This document shows, one piece after another, positions 21,060 to 34,500 of a stretch of DNA of 64,000 bases; position 1 is the stretch's first letter, and the number at the start of each line of letters is the position of its first letter. The position numbers and the translations under genes are program-made. Source of the DNA: Octopus vulgaris (lineage: Eukaryota); the NCBI GenBank assembly GCA_951406725.2, contig OX597815.1, positions 71,238,001 to 71,302,000 on the forward strand. The letters run 5' to 3'. The notes under the pieces were generated by a model. The model worked only from the letters and a program-made list of their open reading frames with translations. It ran no database searches and was not told the DNA's origin.

Positions 21060-21376
21060 TAAGATTTTGACATTAGTCTTCCTAATACACTGTATTAGAT
21101 TACATGTCTCCAACACACCTATACTCAGGAGATGTCACAGATAACATTTAAGCGTTGGTTCTCTATAACGGAGATAAGGTACCTTCCTAACACACATAGA
21201 CTGAGGCTGTACCACAGATAAGATTTTAGTGTTGGTTTCCATAACGCAGATTAGGTACATTTCTAATACAAATAGACCGAGGAGGTACCACAGATAAAAT
21301 TTTAGTGTTGGTTTCTATAACGCAGATTAGGTAGCTAGCTTCCTAGTACATATAGACTGAGGAGGTATCACAGATG
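21060..21376. repeat. ~78-82 bp minisatellite, about 4 diverged units
   Basis: Recurring ...ATAGAC(T/C)GAGG..GTA(C/T)CACAGATAA.ATTTTAGTGTTGGTTTC.ATAACGCAGATTAGGTA... Confidence 0.85.
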
Positions 21377-23256: not shown

Positions 23257-24000
23257 CTATAACATAAATCCCGTTCTGTGTGTGCGTGTGTGTGTGCGTG
23301 TGTGTGTGTGTGTGTGTGTAAAAGATTATAACGGCCGTATTTTTCAACTGATTTTCTCCAAACTGGGAACATACTTTACTTATGTTCCAGGGATGGTTTT
23401 AGACTGTTAAAATTTTTCACATAATGAGTAACGGGCCCCCTGCTGTCAGAAAGTACCAGTTCCTGGGTTACATGAGGAAGGGAGGTAACGCTTTGCGAAG
23501 TAACTTTCAGAAATTGTCACCTTTACATCCATTGGTCATAAAAAAAGATTTTAAAATATTGCTTTTTAAATTAGATCACGTGTTTGAAAGTTTAAAAAAA
23601 TATTTACTTTCGGTTTTCTATCGTCAGTAATGTCTATATCTCTCTATCAATCTCTATCTATCTCTATCATTCTATATCTCTCTATCCATCTCTATCTTTA
23701 TATCTATCTCTCTGTATCTGTTTATATCTTATCTACCTATCTATATCTATATATATAAAACTCAACTTGTGTGTCTGTGTGTGTTTCTGTGTGTTTAACT
23801 TCCCGGCACACCTCATCCTAACCAACAAATCGTAGAACCACCAAAAATGGGTCACTTAAAGTTTAGGCAAATGAAAATTGAACTGCGCTATTTCTGTTCC
23901 GAAATTCATCTCGCAAGTGCAAAAATTGATAATGTGTTTGTTTAGGCCTTATCCCATGCATTGAATAGTGAACTTTACTCAGTCAGCTGTTTGACGTGAA
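23257..24000 (+). mobile_element. Two non-autonomous Helitron/Helentron-like (DINE-1/HINE-type) 5' portions
   Basis: Two CTATA..ATAAA starts (~23257 and ~23748), each followed by a GT/GTCT microsatellite. The first continues with CAACTGATTTTCTCCAAACT, the usual layout of such elements. Confidence 0.5.
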
Positions 24001-24107
24001 CTGTGTTCACCACACGTGCAAGCATGCATGAAATATATATATATATATAAATATATATATTGCATGAAATATATATATATACAAATTAGAAAAATAATAT
24101 ATATATA

Positions 24108-24334
24108 TTTCTTTACTACCCACAAGGGGCTAAACATAGAGGGGACAAACAAGGACAGACAAACAGATTAAGTCGATTACATCAACCCAGTGCGAAACTG
24201 GTACTTTATTTATCGACCCCGAGAGGATGAAAGGCAAAGTCGACCTCGGCGAAATTTGAACTCAGAACGTAACGACAGACGAAATACCGCTAAGCATTTC
24301 GCCCGGCGCGCTAACGTTTCTGCCAGTTCGCCGC
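24108..24334 (-). mobile_element. SINE family A carrying a Tx1/L1-type 3' tail
   Basis: Family A head and body. Its tail (minus strand) TGTCCCCTCTATGTTTAGCCCCTTGTGGGTAGTAAAG matches the LINE tails at 30738-30783 and 35111-35157. Confidence 0.88.
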
Positions 24335-24438
<104 letters not shown>

Positions 24439-24658
24439 GTGTTTGTGTGTGTGTGCCTGTGTTTGTCACTGCCACCATTGCTTGACAACCGATGTTGGCA
24501 TGTTTGCATCCCTGTAACTTAGTGGTTCAACAAGAGACCAATAGAATAAGTACTAGGCTAACAAAGAATAAGTCCTGGGATAGATTTGTTCAACTAAAGG
24601 TGGTGCTCCAGCATGGCTGCAGTCAAATGATTGAAACATAAAAGAATAAAAGAATATG

Positions 24659-24712
<54 letters not shown>

Positions 24713-24714
<2 letters not shown>

Positions 24715-25247
24715 ACAAATAATTAAGGAAATTTTTCTTGAATTTTTTGTTACCCTTATATTGATTGATTAATGAATTCTTGACTAATTCTGAAATTTGT
24801 ATCAGCAGTTTATATTTGCTGCGGAGTAGATGGCGCGATTACGGTGAATTCGAAAATTTAGGATATATAGACCCGAGGCTTGGATGGTGTAGCCTCGTGT
24901 ATATATATCTTCCCCCTCTTTTGGCGACTTTGCTGACGAGACAAGCCAAGCGTAAACAGATTTAATTTAATTTAATTAAATTTGATTGCGTGAAATATGT
25001 TGAAACCTTGCAGGGTACAAAGTTTGAAGGGGATAAATGTTTTTATTTCTCCTCTAGTTTCAGAATTACTACTATTTTTGCGGTTTTGAGTTTAGCTGCT
25101 CTTTTCAAGTGAGTCGAACGACCTTCTCAGGATCTTTCCTTAATTACTTGTTGAATATATTATATAGTCTGTGACTATCTCTATTTTCTCACTTGACCGC
25201 TGGTTGCAGAAAATTTTTCTTGAATTTTTTGTTACCCTTATATTGAT

Positions 25248-25251
<4 letters not shown>
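24713..25251 (+). mobile_element. Hammerhead-containing non-coding retroelement 1 (retrozyme / non-autonomous Penelope-like), 482-nt period, in (TA)n
   Basis: 41-bp perfect terminal direct repeat (24729-24769 = 25211-25251). The 5' tag 24713-24731 is an inverted copy of ~25135-25153. Internal type I hammerhead; (TA)n on both flanks. Confidence 0.8.
24926..25024 (+). ncRNA. Type I hammerhead ribozyme
   Basis: Stem I GACTTTG/CAAAGTT; core CTGACGA (24933-24939); stem II GACA/TGTT with a long extension (GCGTAA/TTGCGT, CAGATTTAATT/AATTAAATTTG); GAAA (25002-25005); stem III CCT-TGCA-GGG; cleavage triplet GTA (cut after 25017). Confidence 0.85.
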
Positions 25252-25311
<60 letters not shown>

Positions 25312-25317
<6 letters not shown>

Positions 25318-25622
25318 AATATAAGAGAGTGGTCACTATATGGCTCACTCTAGCACCAGTTAATCCAAAAGGTTTCAACCACGAAAATACATGTTTCCCA
25401 TGAAAGTCAGTACAATTGTTATGTATTTTCGTGGTTGAAACCTTTTGGATTAACTGGTGCTAGAGTGAGCCATATAGTGACCACTCTCTTATATTTATTT
25501 TGTAAAAATATTATAATATGTTATAAAATATTATAATAATCCAGGTTTCTCGTAGCACTAGGCCACTTGGTGTTGAATAGATATACTATTAAATTAGTAT
25601 CTAATTCTCTCACCCTTATTAA

Positions 25623-25628
<6 letters not shown>
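25312..25628 (+). mobile_element. 5'-truncated member of the same (TA)n-targeted family with an 81-bp 5' inversion (perfect hairpin)
   Basis: 25312-25392 is the exact reverse complement of 25421-25501 (28-nt loop). The 3' part (CTAGG.CACTTGGTGTT.AA...CTAATT.T.TCACCCT.ATT) is homologous to the end of element 3. (TA)n on both flanks. Confidence 0.8.
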
Positions 25629-25680
<52 letters not shown>

Positions 25681-25687
<7 letters not shown>

Positions 25688-26461
25688 GCATATTTTGTTG
25701 ATGAAGAAACAATTGTACAACATTAATCCACTTTTTAGTTGTATTTCAATTTCATTACGTTGAGGTAGTGCTATTTCTATGTGGAATTATCGTTGGCGAT
25801 TATACCGGAGGAGCTATTTCTAGCACTAGAGTAAACATATTCAAAGTTAGCTCTCTTATATTTACGGATAAATATGTATTTGTCTCCCTGGTTTATTGTG
25901 CTAGGTCACTTGGTGTTAAAATAAGGGTATTATTGAATTAATACCTAATTTTTTTCACCCTCATTGTTGAATTTATGAATTTGATACGCTGCAGTAAATA
26001 TTACATGCGGTATTCACTTCCACTAAGTCTTAGCATTTGCTTTCGGCGGGGAATTTGTAACTACAACCCTGAATGTAATTGATCAGACCACATAGGTAAT
26101 CGTCGCCCGTGAGGGTCTGATAAATTGCATCGACAAATGTTGCTGATGATTCATAGACAATTATGTGAGTATAATTTGCATATTTTGTTGATGAAGAAAC
26201 AATTGTACAACATTAATCCACTTTTTAGTTGTATTTCAATTTCATTACGTTGAGGGTAGTGCTATTTCTATGTGGAATTATCGTTGGCGATTATACCGGA
26301 GGAGCTATTTCTAACACTAGAGTTAACATATTCAAAGTTAGCTCTCTTATATTTACGGATAAATATGTATTTGTCTCCCTGGTTTATTGTGCTAGGTCGC
26401 TTGGTGTTAAAAAAAGGGTATTATTGAATTAATATCTAATTTTTTTCACCCTCATTGTTGA

Positions 26462-26463
<2 letters not shown>
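25681..26463 (+). mobile_element. Hammerhead-containing non-coding retroelement 3, ~1.6 tandem copies of a 490-nt unit, in (TA)n
   Basis: Direct repeat 25681-25972 / 26171-26463 (5 substitutions and 1 indel by eye) with a 198-nt spacer. The hammerhead spans the spacer/repeat junction. (TA)n on both flanks. Confidence 0.85.
26136..26214 (+). ncRNA. Type I hammerhead ribozyme with minimal palindromic stem III
   Basis: Stem I AATGTTG/CAACATT; core CTGATGA (26143-26149); stem II TTCAT/ATGAA extended by GACAA/TTGTT and TATGTGAG/TTTGCATA; GAAA (26196-26199); C-AATT-G; cleavage triplet GTA (cut after 26207). The 3' half is repeated at 25681-25724. Confidence 0.88.
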
Positions 26464-26499
<36 letters not shown>

Positions 26500-26511
<12 letters not shown>

Positions 26512-26850
26512 CAGAAGTTGTCTGTGTATGGGAGGCTTGGCAGCCTTCAACTAACACTATCTCCTCCGAGACCCTGCTGCGCAAGTTGACCAAAATTGAG
26601 AGTTTGCTAGAAGAAGGCCATGTTAACACCAAAAATTGTTTACATCAAAAAGGTGCTTTTTTTCTATGAAAATCCCTATTTTTTACGATTTTTTGACTGC
26701 TGTGTTGCCATTTTTCGGTGTATTTCAACCAGGAAAATGTTCACTTAAAGAGAATAACAAGCTACATAATGCAAATTTTTTACTTTTCAAAAATTCCAAT
26801 TCTAAAGGGTCGAAACAAACCCAAGCAACGCCGGGCAATACTGCTCGTCT
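26500..26850 (+). mobile_element. Non-autonomous Helitron-like element
   Basis: TATATAAAG start and 3' GC hairpin CCCAAGCAACGCCGGG followed by CTGCTCGT (degenerate CTAG end). Confidence 0.6.
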
Positions 26851-26871
26851 ATCTTATTTGTCTAACTAGCT

Positions 26872-26938
<67 letters not shown>

Positions 26939-26939
26939 G

Positions 26940-26970
<31 letters not shown>

Positions 26971-27549
26971 TTTCTATTGTTTTCACTTTCATTTTTCAGA
27001 CGCTATTGTTTTCACTTTATGTTCAATCGCTATTTACAAACAACAACGACAAATTATTGACAGAAAGAAGTTCACAGTTACTGATGAAAGTAATTTCATA
27101 CATAATTTACTGACAGAAGTAACTTTATAAATTTCAGTTCAATCCGAACACTTCGTTAAATTTGTCTATACATTTCTTATTTCCTTTTGCAACGTTTTTT
27201 CTTTTCTTTTCTTTTTTCTTTTTTGTTGACGGAATTACTTATAAAGGTAAGTTCATAAATTAATGACAGAAGTAACTTCAAAAATTTCACTTAAACCCGT
27301 ACAGTTAGTTACTTTCCCTAAAAATTCCTTTTTTACTTTTGCAACGGTTTTGTGTCTTTCTGTTAACGGCTGTTTTCTGGTTCCTTCGATACTGGCTCTC
27401 TCACTTCAACCCATACAATTCTTTATTTTCTGTAAAAATTTCTTATTTGCTTTCTGCCCGTCGTATTACGAAATATAATTTCCTTTACCCAGTTATTTTC
27501 ATTGTTCACTATCTTCTCTAACCGTATATTTCTGTATATGTATATAACC

Positions 27550-28879: not shown

Positions 28880-30783
28880 TCATCGAGTGTGTTGGTTAGT
28901 TATTTTGTATGTGAAAAATTTGGAAAAAAAAAACTGTTAAAAAGTTGTCAAAAAATTGAATCGCGCGAGGCGTCTGCCGCTGCGTGTGTGAACCTTTTAT
29001 AGAAGGTGTGTCGACCCTCAAGTCATGGAGACTTACGCGGGGGTCGCCACAACAAAAAGTGATGAGTCTCTTAGAATAAGAGAAGTGTTCTTTAGAAAAG
29101 AACAATTGAAGGAATACGAGAAGTTCGTCAAAAGGGAGGGTGACAGCGTGAAGCTGGTCCCGCCTGTTGAAACAATAGAGGAGAGAATAACAAGATGATA
29201 ACGCAAGATAGGAACACGAGAAAACTGGTGAGAGTGACGATTGAAGAAATAGAGAAATGTCTGGGGGACATTATGAAAAAAGCGACTTTTGTAGACAGAG
29301 GAAAGAAATATGGTACGGTGGAGGTGAGATGCGCAACAAAGGAAGTGGCGGCCTCATTAGCTTCCACTGTACTGAAAGACGAAAATTTCACTATGTGGTC
29401 GACGTATAAAGGAAGACGAGGGGTACGGGTAAGAGTCCCAAAGGTGCCCCCAGAAATAAAAACAGAAATGCTGGTAACAGCCATTCCAGGGGCAGCAAAG
29501 GAGGAAGTAGAAATAGGGTCAATCAAAGAGACCAACGTTGTAAATTGGAAGGGATTCGGAGTAGAGTTGTGGCTGATGGCCACAATGGAAGACATCGAAA
29601 GGTTTCCCTTCCAAATAGAAATAGAAAACGAGAAAACAATTAGTGTAATAGTGGAGGGGAGAAAACCGAATCCTGTGCGGATCAAGAGGGCACATAAAAA
29701 AGGAATGTCCGCTATATGAATTCACAGCGGAGCAAAAAGAGACACAAAGTGGAGAGAAGGAAAACGAACACGAAGGAAAGAACAGCGAAAACAAGGAAAA
29801 GGAAATAACGGAGAAACAACAAGAGAAGGGAAGTAACAGCGCACTGAAGGAAAATGAAAACAAAGGGAAGAAGATAGTAAAAAAGGAGCAAAATCCACAG
29901 GGTGCAGAAGTAGTGGAGAATGAGCCAAGGCAGAAGCAAGAGAAAGAAAAGGAAAGTAAATTAAAGGAAAGAGAAAAAACAGGAAAAGAACAAGAGAAGG
30001 AACAGAACCAAGAGAAAGGAAAAGATAGTATGCAAAAAGGAAAAGAAACAACAGGAAAGGAACATAAGGCACAGGGTAGAGAGACGACAGACAAAGAGCC
30101 AAAAAGACAAGACAAGGAAAAAGAAAGAAGAGAAAGCAAAAAGAGAGAAAGAGAGAAACCGAGCGAGGAGAAAAAAGAGGAAGTAAGTCCTAAGAGAAAA
30201 GCTAGAGAAAATGTAGGTACGAATAAAAGATTCATATACTATGGAACATTGATCCATCACAGGCACTGTGAGGAGATGGAGGATTTAATAGGCGAAACGG
30301 ATGGATATACGTGGATCAGGATGGGCACCGAATGGAAAGAAACAGGTGCACTCGTCCACGAGAACAACGCCGAGGCGTTCATCGAGGCAGCTGGCAAGAA
30401 CGTATCAAAATATAGGAAATGCCGACTTACAAGGTGGCCACGAGAAATGGAAAACTACCAGGAATTGGTAGAGATAATGGAGTATATATAAAAGAAAAGG
30501 TATTGTGAAAACTTTAATTTGGAAATGATAAAAAGAACTTTAAATTCGGAAAAAAAAAAAAAATGTTGAACTTTGTAAAATTTTTGAAATGTATGTTGAA
30601 AATGTGTAAAATGTTTTTATTTGGAAAATATTGTTGAGGAAAAAAAAAATGACGAAATGTAACCGCTCGATTTCGGGGATCGAGTGGGCATTGCACCACA
30701 TTGTACAAACTTCATAATTCATTATTTTATTTTTCCCGATTGTATTGTCCCCTCTATGTTGCCCCTTGTGGGTAGGAATAAAA
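28880..30783 (+). mobile_element. Tx1/L1-type ORF1-only module with its own 3' tail
   Basis: Contains a Gag-like ORF1 and ends in GATTGTATTGTCCCCTCTATGTTGCCCCTTGTGGGTAGGAATAAAA. Bounded by CAATTCCAGTCT at 28868-28879 and 30784-30795. Confidence 0.8.
29195..30491 (+). pseudogene. LINE ORF1 (RRM-like region, CCHC zinc knuckle, E/K-rich linker), one frameshift at ~29670
   Basis: YGTVEVRC...GVRVRVPKVPPEI...VIVEGRKP, then in the shifted frame LCGSRGHIKKECP (zinc knuckle missing its first Cys), continuing into the charged ORF 29913-30491. Confidence 0.8.
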
Positions 30784-31070
30784 CAATTCCAGTCTGTTAT
30801 ACGCCAGTCTGTTTTTGTCATTTGCTGTTTATTACCGGTTTGTGAATTTAACTATTGTTACTTTGTTTTATATATTGTGTATTTTGTCTAAAAACTGTTA
30901 TTAGCCTTCGCGCGAAGGCTACGTATGAAAATCCCCCCCCCCCACGGGGGAATTGCTTTGAAACAATTATTGTGAAACAGTTTAAAATATACACAAAAGG
31001 CTTGCGAAGCCAAAATTTTTTGAAGGCTTGTTATAGCCAATTGAAAAGGCTTGTAAAGCCACATCCAGAG

Positions 31071-31516
31071 ATGGAGACTCCTATCTCATATTCACCTGTA
31101 TCAGGTGAAGAAAGTTCACCGGCGACAAATACAAAAAGAGGAGGGGTGGTCAAAAATTACCAAAAAAAAAATGGAAAACAGAAACCACCCTACAGAAAGA
31201 GAGCCAAAAAAAGAGGAAAGAAGCGACAAATACATTTATGGCCATTAAGGCTGCCAACAACAGGCTAATTAATGTTTTGGCAGCCATGGCCAAGGTGGAG
31301 AAAATTAAAAAAACAAAAGACTGTATTGTTTATAGAATAGGCCGGAAGGATTACGGACGGATAAAATCCGAATTCTTTCACGACGTGGGCCCTCTGAGAT
31401 TGGACATATCTCCATATTTATACGAGGGCCTGCGTCGGACTCCCCCACGAGCCCAGGAAAAAAATAAAAGTGAAGAAGACGAAAAACAAGTCGAACAAGT
31501 CGAACCACTGATATAA
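31071..31516 (+). pseudogene. Short basic ORF (~148 aa if the A-run at ~31162-31171 is corrected) upstream of ORF2, function unknown
   Basis: METPISYSPVSGEESS...KNYQKK joins WKTETTLQKESQKKRKEATNTFMAIKAANNRL...EPLI with a single frameshift in a homopolymer. It ends 8 nt before the ORF2 ATG. Confidence 0.5.
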
Positions 31517-31524
31517 GGTAAGTT

Positions 31525-34500
31525 ATGGATTGCATTTATGTTGGTTGTTTAAATGTGCGCGGCCTGGGATCAAGCTGGAAGCAAGGTCGCTTCCTTAATG
31601 ATATCAGGTCGCGTAATTTGGATGTTATTGTTGCTACAGAAACCCGGTTAGAGGGGCCAAGAGGTCTACTCCCGCTGTTTGACGGCTACGAGAGTTTTTC
31701 TCTCCGGCCAGTCCTACAGGCGGGGGTGGGGTGTTGGTCCTATTAAAAAGAAACCGGGTTTTTGGGAAAAAGTTAATTTTTTCAGACCCAGAAGGTAGGC
31801 TGGTCGTCATGGATTTGACGTTCAGTAACGGTAAAGTTATCAGACTGGTTGCAATTTACGCACCCAACCAAAAAGGGCAAAGTGATTATTTTCGAGAACT
31901 GGATAACTTTCTTGGTACTTCGCATTCATTAGTTGTGCTAGGAGACTTTAACACAATTTGCATAACGGATGTAGATTGTGTTGGCTTGCGTCCAGATAGA
32001 AAAGGTAACATTGGCTTCCTGGAACTGCTAAGCCGCTTTGAGCTAGCAGATCCTTATAGGTTGGAATTTCCGAACGCTCCATTGTGGACATGGTCAAACA
32101 GCGACGGATCTTCCAGGTCATACATAGATAGGATACTAATTAGAAAAGTAGACAGAAAAATAGCTAAGTGTCCACAGTTTTACCTGGTCAGCTACAGTGA
32201 TCATAAAATGGTCACCTGTAAGCTTGACATAGATAAGGTTAAAAATAGAGGCTCCGGTTACTGGAAACTTAATACGTCCCTTTTGGCGATTAAGGAGTAC
32301 AGAGACCGGATTAGAACTATAATTCAGAGGGCGCTATCTGGTGCCATCATTAATAACAAATGGTGGTATGCCCTCAAGCGAGCCATCAAATTCGAGTCAA
32401 TTAGATATAGCATAGGATTAGTGGCTAGAGAGGCTAGGAGGGAATCTACTCTAGTTAAGGAATTAGAGGAATCCTTGAAAACTGGCTCTGCGGTTCAGGT
32501 GGCGGTCAAGAGACTGGCGTTAAACCAGCACCGCGAGGCCAAACACATGGGCTGCATTGTCAGGGCTAGGATCTGCGCAATGGGTTGTGAAGGAATCAAC
32601 GCCGTGAGATGGGCCTGAGTGGTGGAAGCTCAGTGTGGTAACGACACCACGATTCGATCTATGACGAACCAACAAGGTGAGTTGATAAACGAGCCCGAGG
32701 AGATGTGTGAGGCCTTTCAGGAGCACTTCGCTCAGCTTTTCGGTGAGTGCGGCGGACTGGATAGGAGGAGGGCCTTTACGGACCTCCTCGACAGGCTGCC
32801 GCGCTTATCGGGGCGAGATGCGGAGGGCTGTGAAGGGCCAATCACGCCTGGGGAGGTGGTTGAGGCGATGGCGGACTGCGGCGCGGGCAAGGCGCCGGGT
32901 TTAGATGGTCTACCCTATGAGTTATATAAGAGTATGCCAGACTTGTTCGGGCACCTACTGGTGGAGGTCTATGCGAACTGGCAGCAGAACGGGTTCATAC
33001 CCAGATCTGTGCGCCGGGGAGTAGTGACACTCGTCAGAAAGGACCCGAGCAAGGGGGAGTGCATTGATAATTTCAGGCCCATCACTCTGCTAAACACAGA
33101 GTTGAAGATTTTGGCCAAAGTGTTATCGAAAAGATTGGCGCGTGTCGCGGATGGTCTGATCGGGGAGGCACAGACATGTGCCGTTCCCGGCAGAACCATT
33201 CAGGATAATCTCCATCTTATGCGGTACAATATAGAGGGGTTTAATAGTGATTCTGGCAAGGGTGGGGCACTGGTCCATTTAGACCAATCTAAAGCGTTCG
33301 ATAGGGTCGACCATCGCTACCTGGTATCTGCCCTGGCACAGTTCGGGCTGGGCCTTGGCTTCCTCAGGTGGATTATCCAAATTTACGACAACATCGACTC
33401 GGTAGTTCGGGTGAACGACTTATTGTCGAAGCCGTTCAACATCAAGCGCTCGGTTCGTCAAGGGTGTCCGCTCTCCCCGCTTTTGTACGTGATGGCTCTT
33501 GAGCCATTACTGCGAAAACTGAGCGGCATCCCGAGACAGCCAGGTAGTGGAAAATCGGTGTCAGCGTACGCGGATGACATCACCATCATCGTAACCGAAA
33601 TGGATCACCTACGTAAAGTAGGCAAGGCCACAGAGGTTTACCAGACGGTGACAGGAGCAAAAGTTAATCGCGAAAAGTCAGTCGGCTTGCAACTCGGCAC
33701 CTGGAGAGGCAAGTCGATGCCTCCTGACAGCGTCGTGGAGCGTTGGACGGAGGGTCCGATTAAGTTGCTAGGGGTTTGGTTCGGTCCAGACCTCCAAATA
33801 GAGAAGAATTGGGGCGAGGTATCGAGCAGGGTGGCTGCAGTAACCAAGACCTGGACCTTAGCGGTGGCTATCCCTGAAAGGGAGGGCGGAGGTAACCAAT
33901 GTATTTATCGCATCGGTTATCACCTACCGCCTTTCCGTCGTTCCTTGCCCTGATTCGTGGTTGATCAAGTTGGAAAGACAGCTCTTCTACTTCTTGTGGA
34001 AGGGCGAGAAACCACTTGTGAAACGCTCTACTTGCTGTCAACAACCGTTAAAGGGTGGGCTAGGGATGCCTTGGCTGATGATGCGCAGACATGCGCTGAG
34101 GTTAAGACATCTGTGGCTCTACCTGGATGGTGAACGGGTGTGGTCTCCGCTAGCAAAACTGATGTTTCCCAAGTTCACTAGTTTCGGTGGATGGGAAACC
34201 TGGCTGAATCGTAGATCGAAACTAGGCACATGGTACACGGAGTGTCGCAAGGCTCTCCTGCTTTTCCGTCGCTCGGGCAACGCCTGCGGTGGGGTTCTAC
34301 CACATTCTTCTATAGAGGGTTGGTAGAGGCGGAATGTGAAGATACCTTGGGGGAAACCCTAGGTCTCGACGATAATCAGCTGGCCAGTCTGTTCCGACGT
34401 ACGTTCGAGCCGAAGACACTGGACAACTTCCAGAAGTCTCTGGCGTGGCAATGCTACAGAGGAGCTCTACCTGTTCGGGATAAACTCGCAAGGCACGGTG

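Follow-up and report, generated by a model that had tools for sequence, protein, structure and literature searches.

Hammerhead-bearing non-coding retroelements in (TA)n runs of the Octopus vulgaris genome: likely passengers of a Penelope-like element

Non-LTR retrozymes have been described as circular RNAs, probably mobilised by Penelope-like elements (PLEs; Cervera and de la Pena 2020, PMC7229834), and a preprint by Li et al. (10.64898/2026.07.22.740005) links retrozymes to pLTRs. In the accessible sections of that preprint one of nine dimer elements was cleaved, and the invertebrates covered are three insects and a coral; the available text of PMC7229834 contains neither 'octopus' nor 'cephalopod'. 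Tails, inverted copies and a bias towards microsatellites are hallmarks of PLEs according to the available part of PMC8557442, which lists octopus Hydra and Naiad PLEs with a (TA)n preference and only short stem II. For the Poseidon PLE of Anolis, the account available to us (Frangieh et al. 2024, PMC11167929) describes two internal sites at which reverse transcription starts in vitro, their spacing being equal to the tail; the reaction did not require hammerhead cleavage and ran mainly on uncut RNA. As to cephalopods, a giant squid paper counts 235 Rfam hammerheads, with no analysis of them in its accessible part. In an octopus repeat annotation from 2026 the word 'ribozyme' is missing from the available text and 'hammerhead' from one supplement; its repeat library may contain the units described below under other names. 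We found no earlier description of the present families in the literature searched, which included few subscription papers and had Repbase and Dfam outside its scope.

Here we analyse a window of 64,000 nt from O. vulgaris (contig OX597815.1, positions 71,238,001 to 71,302,000), in which three elements stand between (TA)n runs. They belong to three dispersed non-coding families, with units of 482 nt (F1), 536 nt (F2) and about 490 nt (F3). We conclude with good confidence that F1-F3 are non-autonomous, hammerhead-bearing passengers, that is, non-LTR retrozymes, likely copied into (TA)n by the RT-endonuclease of a PLE, which is probably of Hydra type.

The (TA)n runs that flank and separate the three elements lie at 24665-24712, 25250-25311, 25628-25683 and 26465-26508. 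The sequence and a repeat scan agree on them, and with the first-pass annotation of this DNA, which had described three elements between such runs with three related end motifs. Element 1 (24713-25251, plus strand, family F1), to the right of the target run 24665-24712, consists of a short inverted arm, a 40-nt partial unit and a full 482-nt unit (24770-25251). Its first 19 nt (24713-24731, minus strand) are probably an inverted 5' arm ending at the inner 3' end: 18 of the 19 nt match 25135-25153, while the next best match reaches 15/19. On the plus strand, a predicted hairpin (24862-24909, by folding) precedes the F1 type I hammerhead (24927-25023, by descriptor scan), made of stem I (24927-24932/25018-25023), CUGACGA (from 24933), stem II (24940-25001) and GAAA (from 25002), with a predicted cut after 25017. 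A terminal hairpin closed by GGT...ACC (25202-25236, plus strand) ends 15 nt before the outer 3' end.

Element 2 is formed by two arms set head-to-head and has no ribozyme. The inverted arm (25312-25421, minus strand) corresponds to positions 299-408 of the F2 unit, with the inner 3' end against (TA)n; the direct arm (25421-25628, plus strand) is a ribozyme-less fragment covering unit positions 328-535 and includes the GGT...ACC-closed terminal hairpin (25569-25614, plus strand). One word in the loop of this element resembles a palindrome and was considered as a ribozyme half; we rejected it, as it arises from one substitution. Element 3 (25681-26463, plus strand, family F3) is a 5'-truncated partial unit followed by a full 489-nt unit (25975-26463). 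It starts with the 3' half of a hammerhead (25681-25723, plus strand), with GAAA, stem III, GUA at 25717 and the 3' strand of stem I, and without the CUGAUGA strand. The full unit carries the F3 type I hammerhead (26137-26213, plus strand; CUGAUGA from 26143, stem II 26150-26195, GAAA from 26196, predicted cut after 26207) and a GGT...ACC-closed terminal hairpin (26403-26450, plus strand), 13 nt before the outer end.

The periods of 482 and 490 nt with terminal redundancy that had been noted earlier are recovered by the repeat scan, as 482 nt with 44 nt of redundancy in element 1 and 490/491 nt with about 290 nt in element 3. Elements 1 and 3 had also been said to hold no credible ORF: among the five ATG ORFs of at least 30 aa in the three of them none exceeds 38 aa, and no ORF of the F1-F3 units combines RT and GIY-YIG. 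The single orientation ascribed to the three elements has to be given up in view of the inverted arm at 25312-25421 and the probable one at 24713-24731.

Other repeats lie close by. Two more short interspersed repeats, at 24110-24335 and 24437-24650, sit within the same (TA)n chain and presumably resemble common octopus SINE-like repeats. The repeat at 26509-26850 adjoins element 3, similar sequence flanks other loci (e.g. L225), and we take its 3' hairpin end to be Helitron-like. Elsewhere in the window, a minisatellite (76 nt, 3.1 copies) occupies 21136-21375, and a LINE-like element with an endonuclease (PF03372, E 1e-10) and an RT (PF00078, E 1e-31), its frames split by a stop, occupies 29171-34326 of the plus strand.

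The hammerheads of elements 1 and 3 are the only two of type I in the whole window by descriptor scan, against a chance expectation of 0.03 matches per window (30 shuffles). Their stem II is unusually long, 62 nt in F1 and 46 nt in F3, and spans 46-62 nt over the units of the three families; stem III is self-complementary (palindromic), and structure prediction recovers the hairpins upstream. The long stem II, the palindromic stem III and the upstream hairpin of elements 1 and 3 had been recognised at first reading. The covariance-model check suggested at the same time came out differently: scanning 23500-27500 with Rfam gave 32 matches with E up to 10, none of them to a hammerhead family, Hammerhead_1 included, probably because of the 62- and 46-nt stem II. 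Annotation that relies on Rfam thus overlooks a form of ribozyme of which this genome has at least 5,900 instances.

We searched the 2.8-Gb genome (227 contigs) with the three family queries and retained the best 40 scored of 1945, 747 and 776 first-look candidates, which gave 88, 88 and 84 match rows; these are not copy numbers. F2 and F3 are homologous (60-75% identity over three segments), and F1 has no significant alignment to either. That elements 1 and 3 share little sequence had been noted at first reading; elements 2 and 3 are related. The full 536-nt F2 unit carries its own hammerhead; element 2, the 3' part of such a unit, has none. GC content of the units is 0.32-0.35, below the 45% limit for non-LTR retrozymes. 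The 208-nt direct arm of element 2 has 32 identical segments across 10 contigs, so F2 must be very young. Exact core patterns of the F1 type number 117 genome-wide (control 0), and exact cores with the F2/F3 stem III number 5838 (control 4). The latter set comprises F2, F3 and coding elements of the H2 type (see below), and the 30 loci fetched from it consisted of F2 and H2-type coding elements. A search for the shared end motif with (TA)7 after it yields 8754 rows, in which the reverse strand is double-counted, against 885 in the control. This motif search turned up more families, including F4, with a unit of 557-561 nt and a stem II of 26-30 nt, which makes up the majority of end-motif matches on contig C1. 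Further non-coding hammerhead families were seen at L151-L153, L160-L163, L169, L094, L302 and L124, all except L124 with a terminal hairpin as in F1-F3.

All 12 core positions of the hammerhead are intact in 31 of 32 distinct F1 copies, 30 of 31 F2 copies and 29 of 36 F3 copies, so that 7 of the 36 F3 copies have core changes. Scored against the commonest letter of each column, the core differs in 1/384 cells for F1 and 7/432 for F3, as opposed to 351/11608 and 1066/12202 elsewhere in the unit (column-resampling P 0.013 and 0.014, values made optimistic by the relatedness of the copies and by their choice as best matches). The core is thus conserved 5-10 times better than the rest of the unit in the two older families; F2 is uninformative (4/372 vs 96/12205, P 0.78). 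Compensatory changes occur in F3: at each of two stem I pairs in one of the 36 copies, and at one stem II pair, which is C-G in 23 copies and T-A in 13. In the F3 alignment, 15/36 copies leave the first pair of stem II unpaired. Conservation of core and stems among genomic copies, expected from the first-pass annotation, therefore holds. Stem III of F1 exists in three variants, all self-complementary; their homoduplexes are predicted at -15 to -20 kcal/mol, and alone they would hardly fold, which fits dimer cleavage as described in the available part of PMC4209133. The active hammerhead fold of the monomers is predicted to lie 1.6-5.6 kcal/mol above the minimum free energy.

The association with (TA)n extends from the window to the genome. 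Outer ends not followed by another unit adjoin (TA)n in 20/22 cases for F1, 18/20 for F2 (one of the two misses being a cross-match to F3) and 19/24 for F3, with a background of 1.4% per position. Among the copies are 5'-truncated ones, partial tandems and ones with inverted 5' arms, and each family has two fixed 3' ends, the inner of which lies about 85-130 nt upstream of the outer one. The 5' ends are scattered, with no pile-up at the ribozyme cut site among our loci, which are biased to long copies. Arrays can be as long as 13 units with an inverted arm after them, and many insertions run across at least one intact ribozyme. A cleaved linear monomer cannot be the template of insertions that cross the cut site; a circle or an uncut multimer can. 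At one F2 array, about 220 nt of unrelated sequence (L086:680-900) lie 5' of the array, between it and (TA)n.

The use of the two 3' ends is asymmetric. The 93 complete insertions of F1-F3 divide into 44 direct and 49 inverted ones. Direct insertions finish at the outer end in 31 cases, at the inner end in 12 and elsewhere in one; inverted insertions combine one outer and one inner end in 43 cases and have one atypical end in the remaining 6, the same end being used twice in none. Leaving aside F2, whose query is itself inverted, the outer and inner combination accounts for 28/33. Of the eight F4-type inverted loci, one is outer/outer (F4b). At 11 of 13 loci the two arms of the insertion, inverted and direct, resemble one another far more than they resemble other loci, and two of the 13 mix templates. 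At L008 and L081 the arms differ at the between-locus level (3-5%), which suggests two template RNAs in one event. Fixed 3' and variable 5' ends, inverted arms, dispersed identical copies and selection on an RNA core are, as read from genomic sequence, marks of reverse transcription, and the insertion anatomy supports the earlier idea of mobilisation in trans by a PLE. Homogeneous arrays, for their part, cannot separate a circular from a linear donor.

The 3' ends are associated with hairpins. All 10 hand-picked subfamily representatives, two of which were found with a search pattern that includes the ACC half, have a GGT...ACC-closed hairpin that ends 10-15 nt before the outer end; at any position, such a hairpin occurs in 297 of 3969 background windows. 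Inner ends of F2-F4 are likewise preceded by hairpins, at about 13-16 nt, F1 being ambiguous. The GGT...ACC hairpin would be the recognition site of the RT.

A coding PLE sharing the ACCC(T/C)A 3' end had been proposed as a target to look for; our searches found none among the coding families examined. A GIY-YIG search returned a young two-ORF family with (TA)n flanks, many intact copies (L121-L130, e.g. L122:1581-6270) and a 781-aa RT-endonuclease, which we take to be Neptune-like from its Cys linker. Its upstream 479-aa ORF overlaps the RT ORF, its tail is about 40 nt long with a hairpin some 16 nt before the end, and its minimal hammerhead, judged by eye, has U3-A8 replacing C3-G8. Neptune-like elements of this genome thus also target (TA)n. 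Neither this family nor the several others from the GIY-YIG search shares sequence with F1-F3.

We came upon another coding family, H1 (899 aa, 9469 candidates), through an RT fragment next to an F2-like copy; the RT of H1 is only 22% identical to the Neptune-like one. On visual comparison with the Hydra alignment that PMC8557442 gives as a supplement, the RT motifs of H1, including DKT, and those of H2 fragments appear to match the Hydra clade. The H1 hammerhead has a stem II of 47-56 nt and a palindromic stem III, and the two ends lie about 57 and 217 nt past the cut. No CxCX5C linker was seen in H1, which has a long low-complexity linker; its ORFs were unrecognised by Pfam, and a second search with its protein returned the same family only. 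H2, also coding, has a CxCX5C linker, a stem II of 58-59 nt, the same stem III as F2/F3, and ends about 37 and 154 nt past the cut. Both families are flanked by (TA)n and have a long tail of about 120-160 nt. From GAAA onward, H2 aligns to F2 over 44-50 nt at 76-80% identity (best E 3e-6). The family with the most candidates, H3 (21,656; 727 aa), has a CxCX5C linker and an ordinary short hammerhead, and none of its ends matches F1-F3. At least three coding Hydra-type families are abundant (H1, L211-L226; H2, L227-L238 and L319-L326; H3, L239-L258), and H1 and H3 have many intact ORFs. A junction of F2-like sequence with a Hydra-type RT (L180/L221) was considered as a template-switch chimera and rejected: upstream flank and 5' truncation are those of L212/L184, hence the pair represents one duplicated event at a pre-existing copy.

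In H1, H2, H3 and the Neptune-like family, too, a hairpin precedes the outer end by 10-16 nt, there not of the GGT...ACC form. The outer 3' end of F1-F3 and its GGT...ACC hairpin are absent from the coding families examined, for which the best 148-150 scored candidates per search were considered. As none of these shares the outer end, we can only infer the mobiliser of F1-F3; on sequence grounds we lean towards a Hydra-type PLE.

From these observations we draw the following putative cycle. A tandem copy would be transcribed, and the palindromic stem III is predicted to pair neighbouring hammerheads, so that a monomer is cut out; this monomer would then be circularised, a step for which the chances seem slightly better than even. 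The borrowed enzyme would nick both strands of a (TA)n run, and cDNA would start within the RNA at one of two sites, which are separated by about 85-130 nt and each lie 10-16 nt past a hairpin. Extension of both nicks, one from the outer and the other from the inner site, would produce the observed head-to-head arms, and a halt of synthesis at variable points would give the observed range from a 0.6-unit fragment to a 13-unit array. A bolder version, which we put forward tentatively, is that thousands of actively spreading viroid-sized circular RNAs present a convergent two-hairpin 'handle' to a Hydra-type PLE, and that one enzyme dimer makes two cDNAs per circle, one per hairpin, on opposite (TA)n strands. 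If true, the 43-to-0 asymmetry of ends would be a genomic record of retrozyme circle integration, and the long stem II would be a variant of the ribozyme specific to this lineage and common to host element and parasite.

A competing account does without the circle. The template may instead be an uncut linear multimer transcribed from tandem arrays, the ribozyme only freeing the RNA from host read-through; we regard this as a substantial possibility, though not the favoured one. The Anolis PLE used unprocessed RNA in vitro, with no reads ending at the ribozyme site in the data available in PMC11167929, and homogeneous arrays are also expected from homogeneous donors. However, insertions pass through intact ribozymes for up to 13 units, which a self-cleaving multimer should rarely allow, the predicted monomer circles of the three families fold better than shuffles (z -3.2, -9.7 and -5.2), and related retrozymes accumulate as circles in mussel, according to the part of PMC7229834 available. 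As for the enzyme, another (TA)n-targeting PLE, for example the young Neptune-like family or Naiad, is in our view a less likely mobiliser. The 781-aa family does have numerous intact copies that are flanked by (TA)n and possess a tail, with a hairpin some 16 nt from the end, and no Hydra-type family examined has 3'-end homology to F1-F3; but the Neptune-like tail is only about 40 nt and the hammerhead minimal, whereas H1 and H2 resemble F1-F3 in their long stem II and long tail, and stem III with its adjoining sequence is common to H2 and F2.

We attach very little probability to the idea that a coding PLE was missed by our survey, confined to the best 148-150 scored candidates per search, and that the units are simply pLTR fragments of it, truncated at the 5' end. 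Truncated coding elements do leave similar-looking ribozyme fragments, but such fragments cannot form the fixed-period arrays seen in F1-F3, where the 3' end joins directly to the start of a short unit. Moreover, RT or endonuclease matches near F1-F3 elements lie across a (TA)n run or on the opposite strand, save one junction explained otherwise, and no family query or coding-element scan tied a unit to an upstream ORF in the same element. In the families scanned the units are thus non-coding tandem monomers, as had been supposed at first reading. Even less credible is an origin of the arrays as DNA-level satellites, through slippage or unequal crossover near microsatellites. Head-to-tail arrays are indeed present, and local amplification of retrozyme repeats is discussed in the accessible part of preprint 10.64898/2026.07.22.740005. 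Yet the fixed 3' and variable 5' ends, the inverted arms, the identical copies over 10 contigs and the selection on the RNA core largely refute such processes as the means of dispersal; they could lengthen individual arrays.

We also looked at sequencing runs. At least half of the F2 words occur in 20 of the 24 listed runs, and 14 of these 20 we guess to be RNA. Contigs from four of them cover all 30 bins of the F2 unit and contain no ends or informative joints, the junction of a circle being the same as a genomic tandem junction. An A>G variant at F2 unit position 309 (L086:2018) has a depth of 76/150, 25/158 and 5/71 in three guessed-RNA runs and 0.04% in a large run, and is found in 0 of 56 genomic segments. 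It could reflect A-to-I editing in the long stem, but we do not count it as evidence.

How retrozymes are mobilised in animals and why PLEs keep hammerheads are presented as open questions in the accessible literature. A very young family, intact candidate enzymes of several clades, a hairpin signal before each 3' end and an asymmetry rule make both testable in vitro.

Compared with the available accounts of metazoan non-LTR retrozymes (PMC7229834; 10.64898/2026.07.22.740005), F1-F3 are likewise non-coding, low in GC and tandem, with one type I hammerhead per unit and forms from monomers to multimers, and a PLE has been proposed as mobiliser there too. With 482-536 nt they exceed the 170-400 nt given in PMC7229834 and fall inside the 51-972 nt of the preprint. 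Their stem II, at 46-62 nt, is a further difference. Insertion into (TA)n, inverted arms and a second 3' end do not figure in the parts of these accounts that we compared. Like the Hydra-clade PLEs, including Hydra-1_Obim (Craig et al. 2021, PMC8557442, as available), F1-F3 combine a (TA)n preference with a type I hammerhead and a near-palindromic stem III, and share truncation, partial tandems, inverted copies and a tail at one end; unlike them, they encode nothing. In the table of that paper, stem II of every Hydra hammerhead measures 3-7 bp and its loop does not exceed 10 nt, and tails are 30-40 nt in that clade, in contrast to about 85-130 nt in F1-F3.

The Anolis Poseidon PLE, in the available account (PMC11167929), has an AT-rich target of which both strands are nicked and extended, as we propose for F1-F3. 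It is autonomous and starts inside an AC-rich stem-loop, whereas F1-F3 end 10-16 nt past A/U-rich hairpins and, differently from it, use one of their two sites on each side. The non-autonomous elements of the Chlamys type, for instance MRC1 (PMC8557442, as available), are, like F1-F3, non-coding PLE passengers with head-to-tail insertions. They generally share the 3'-end sequence of their partner, and most Chlamys elements are without canonical hammerheads; F1-F3 differ in having no outer end in common with a coding partner among the families examined. By sequence and anatomy, then, F1-F3 belong with the non-LTR retrozymes and non-autonomous PLEs, cleavage and circularity being predicted properties. 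The retrozyme class itself is known; what is new here is the lineage, the long stem II, the long tails, an end signal conserved in structure, and the asymmetry of the ends.
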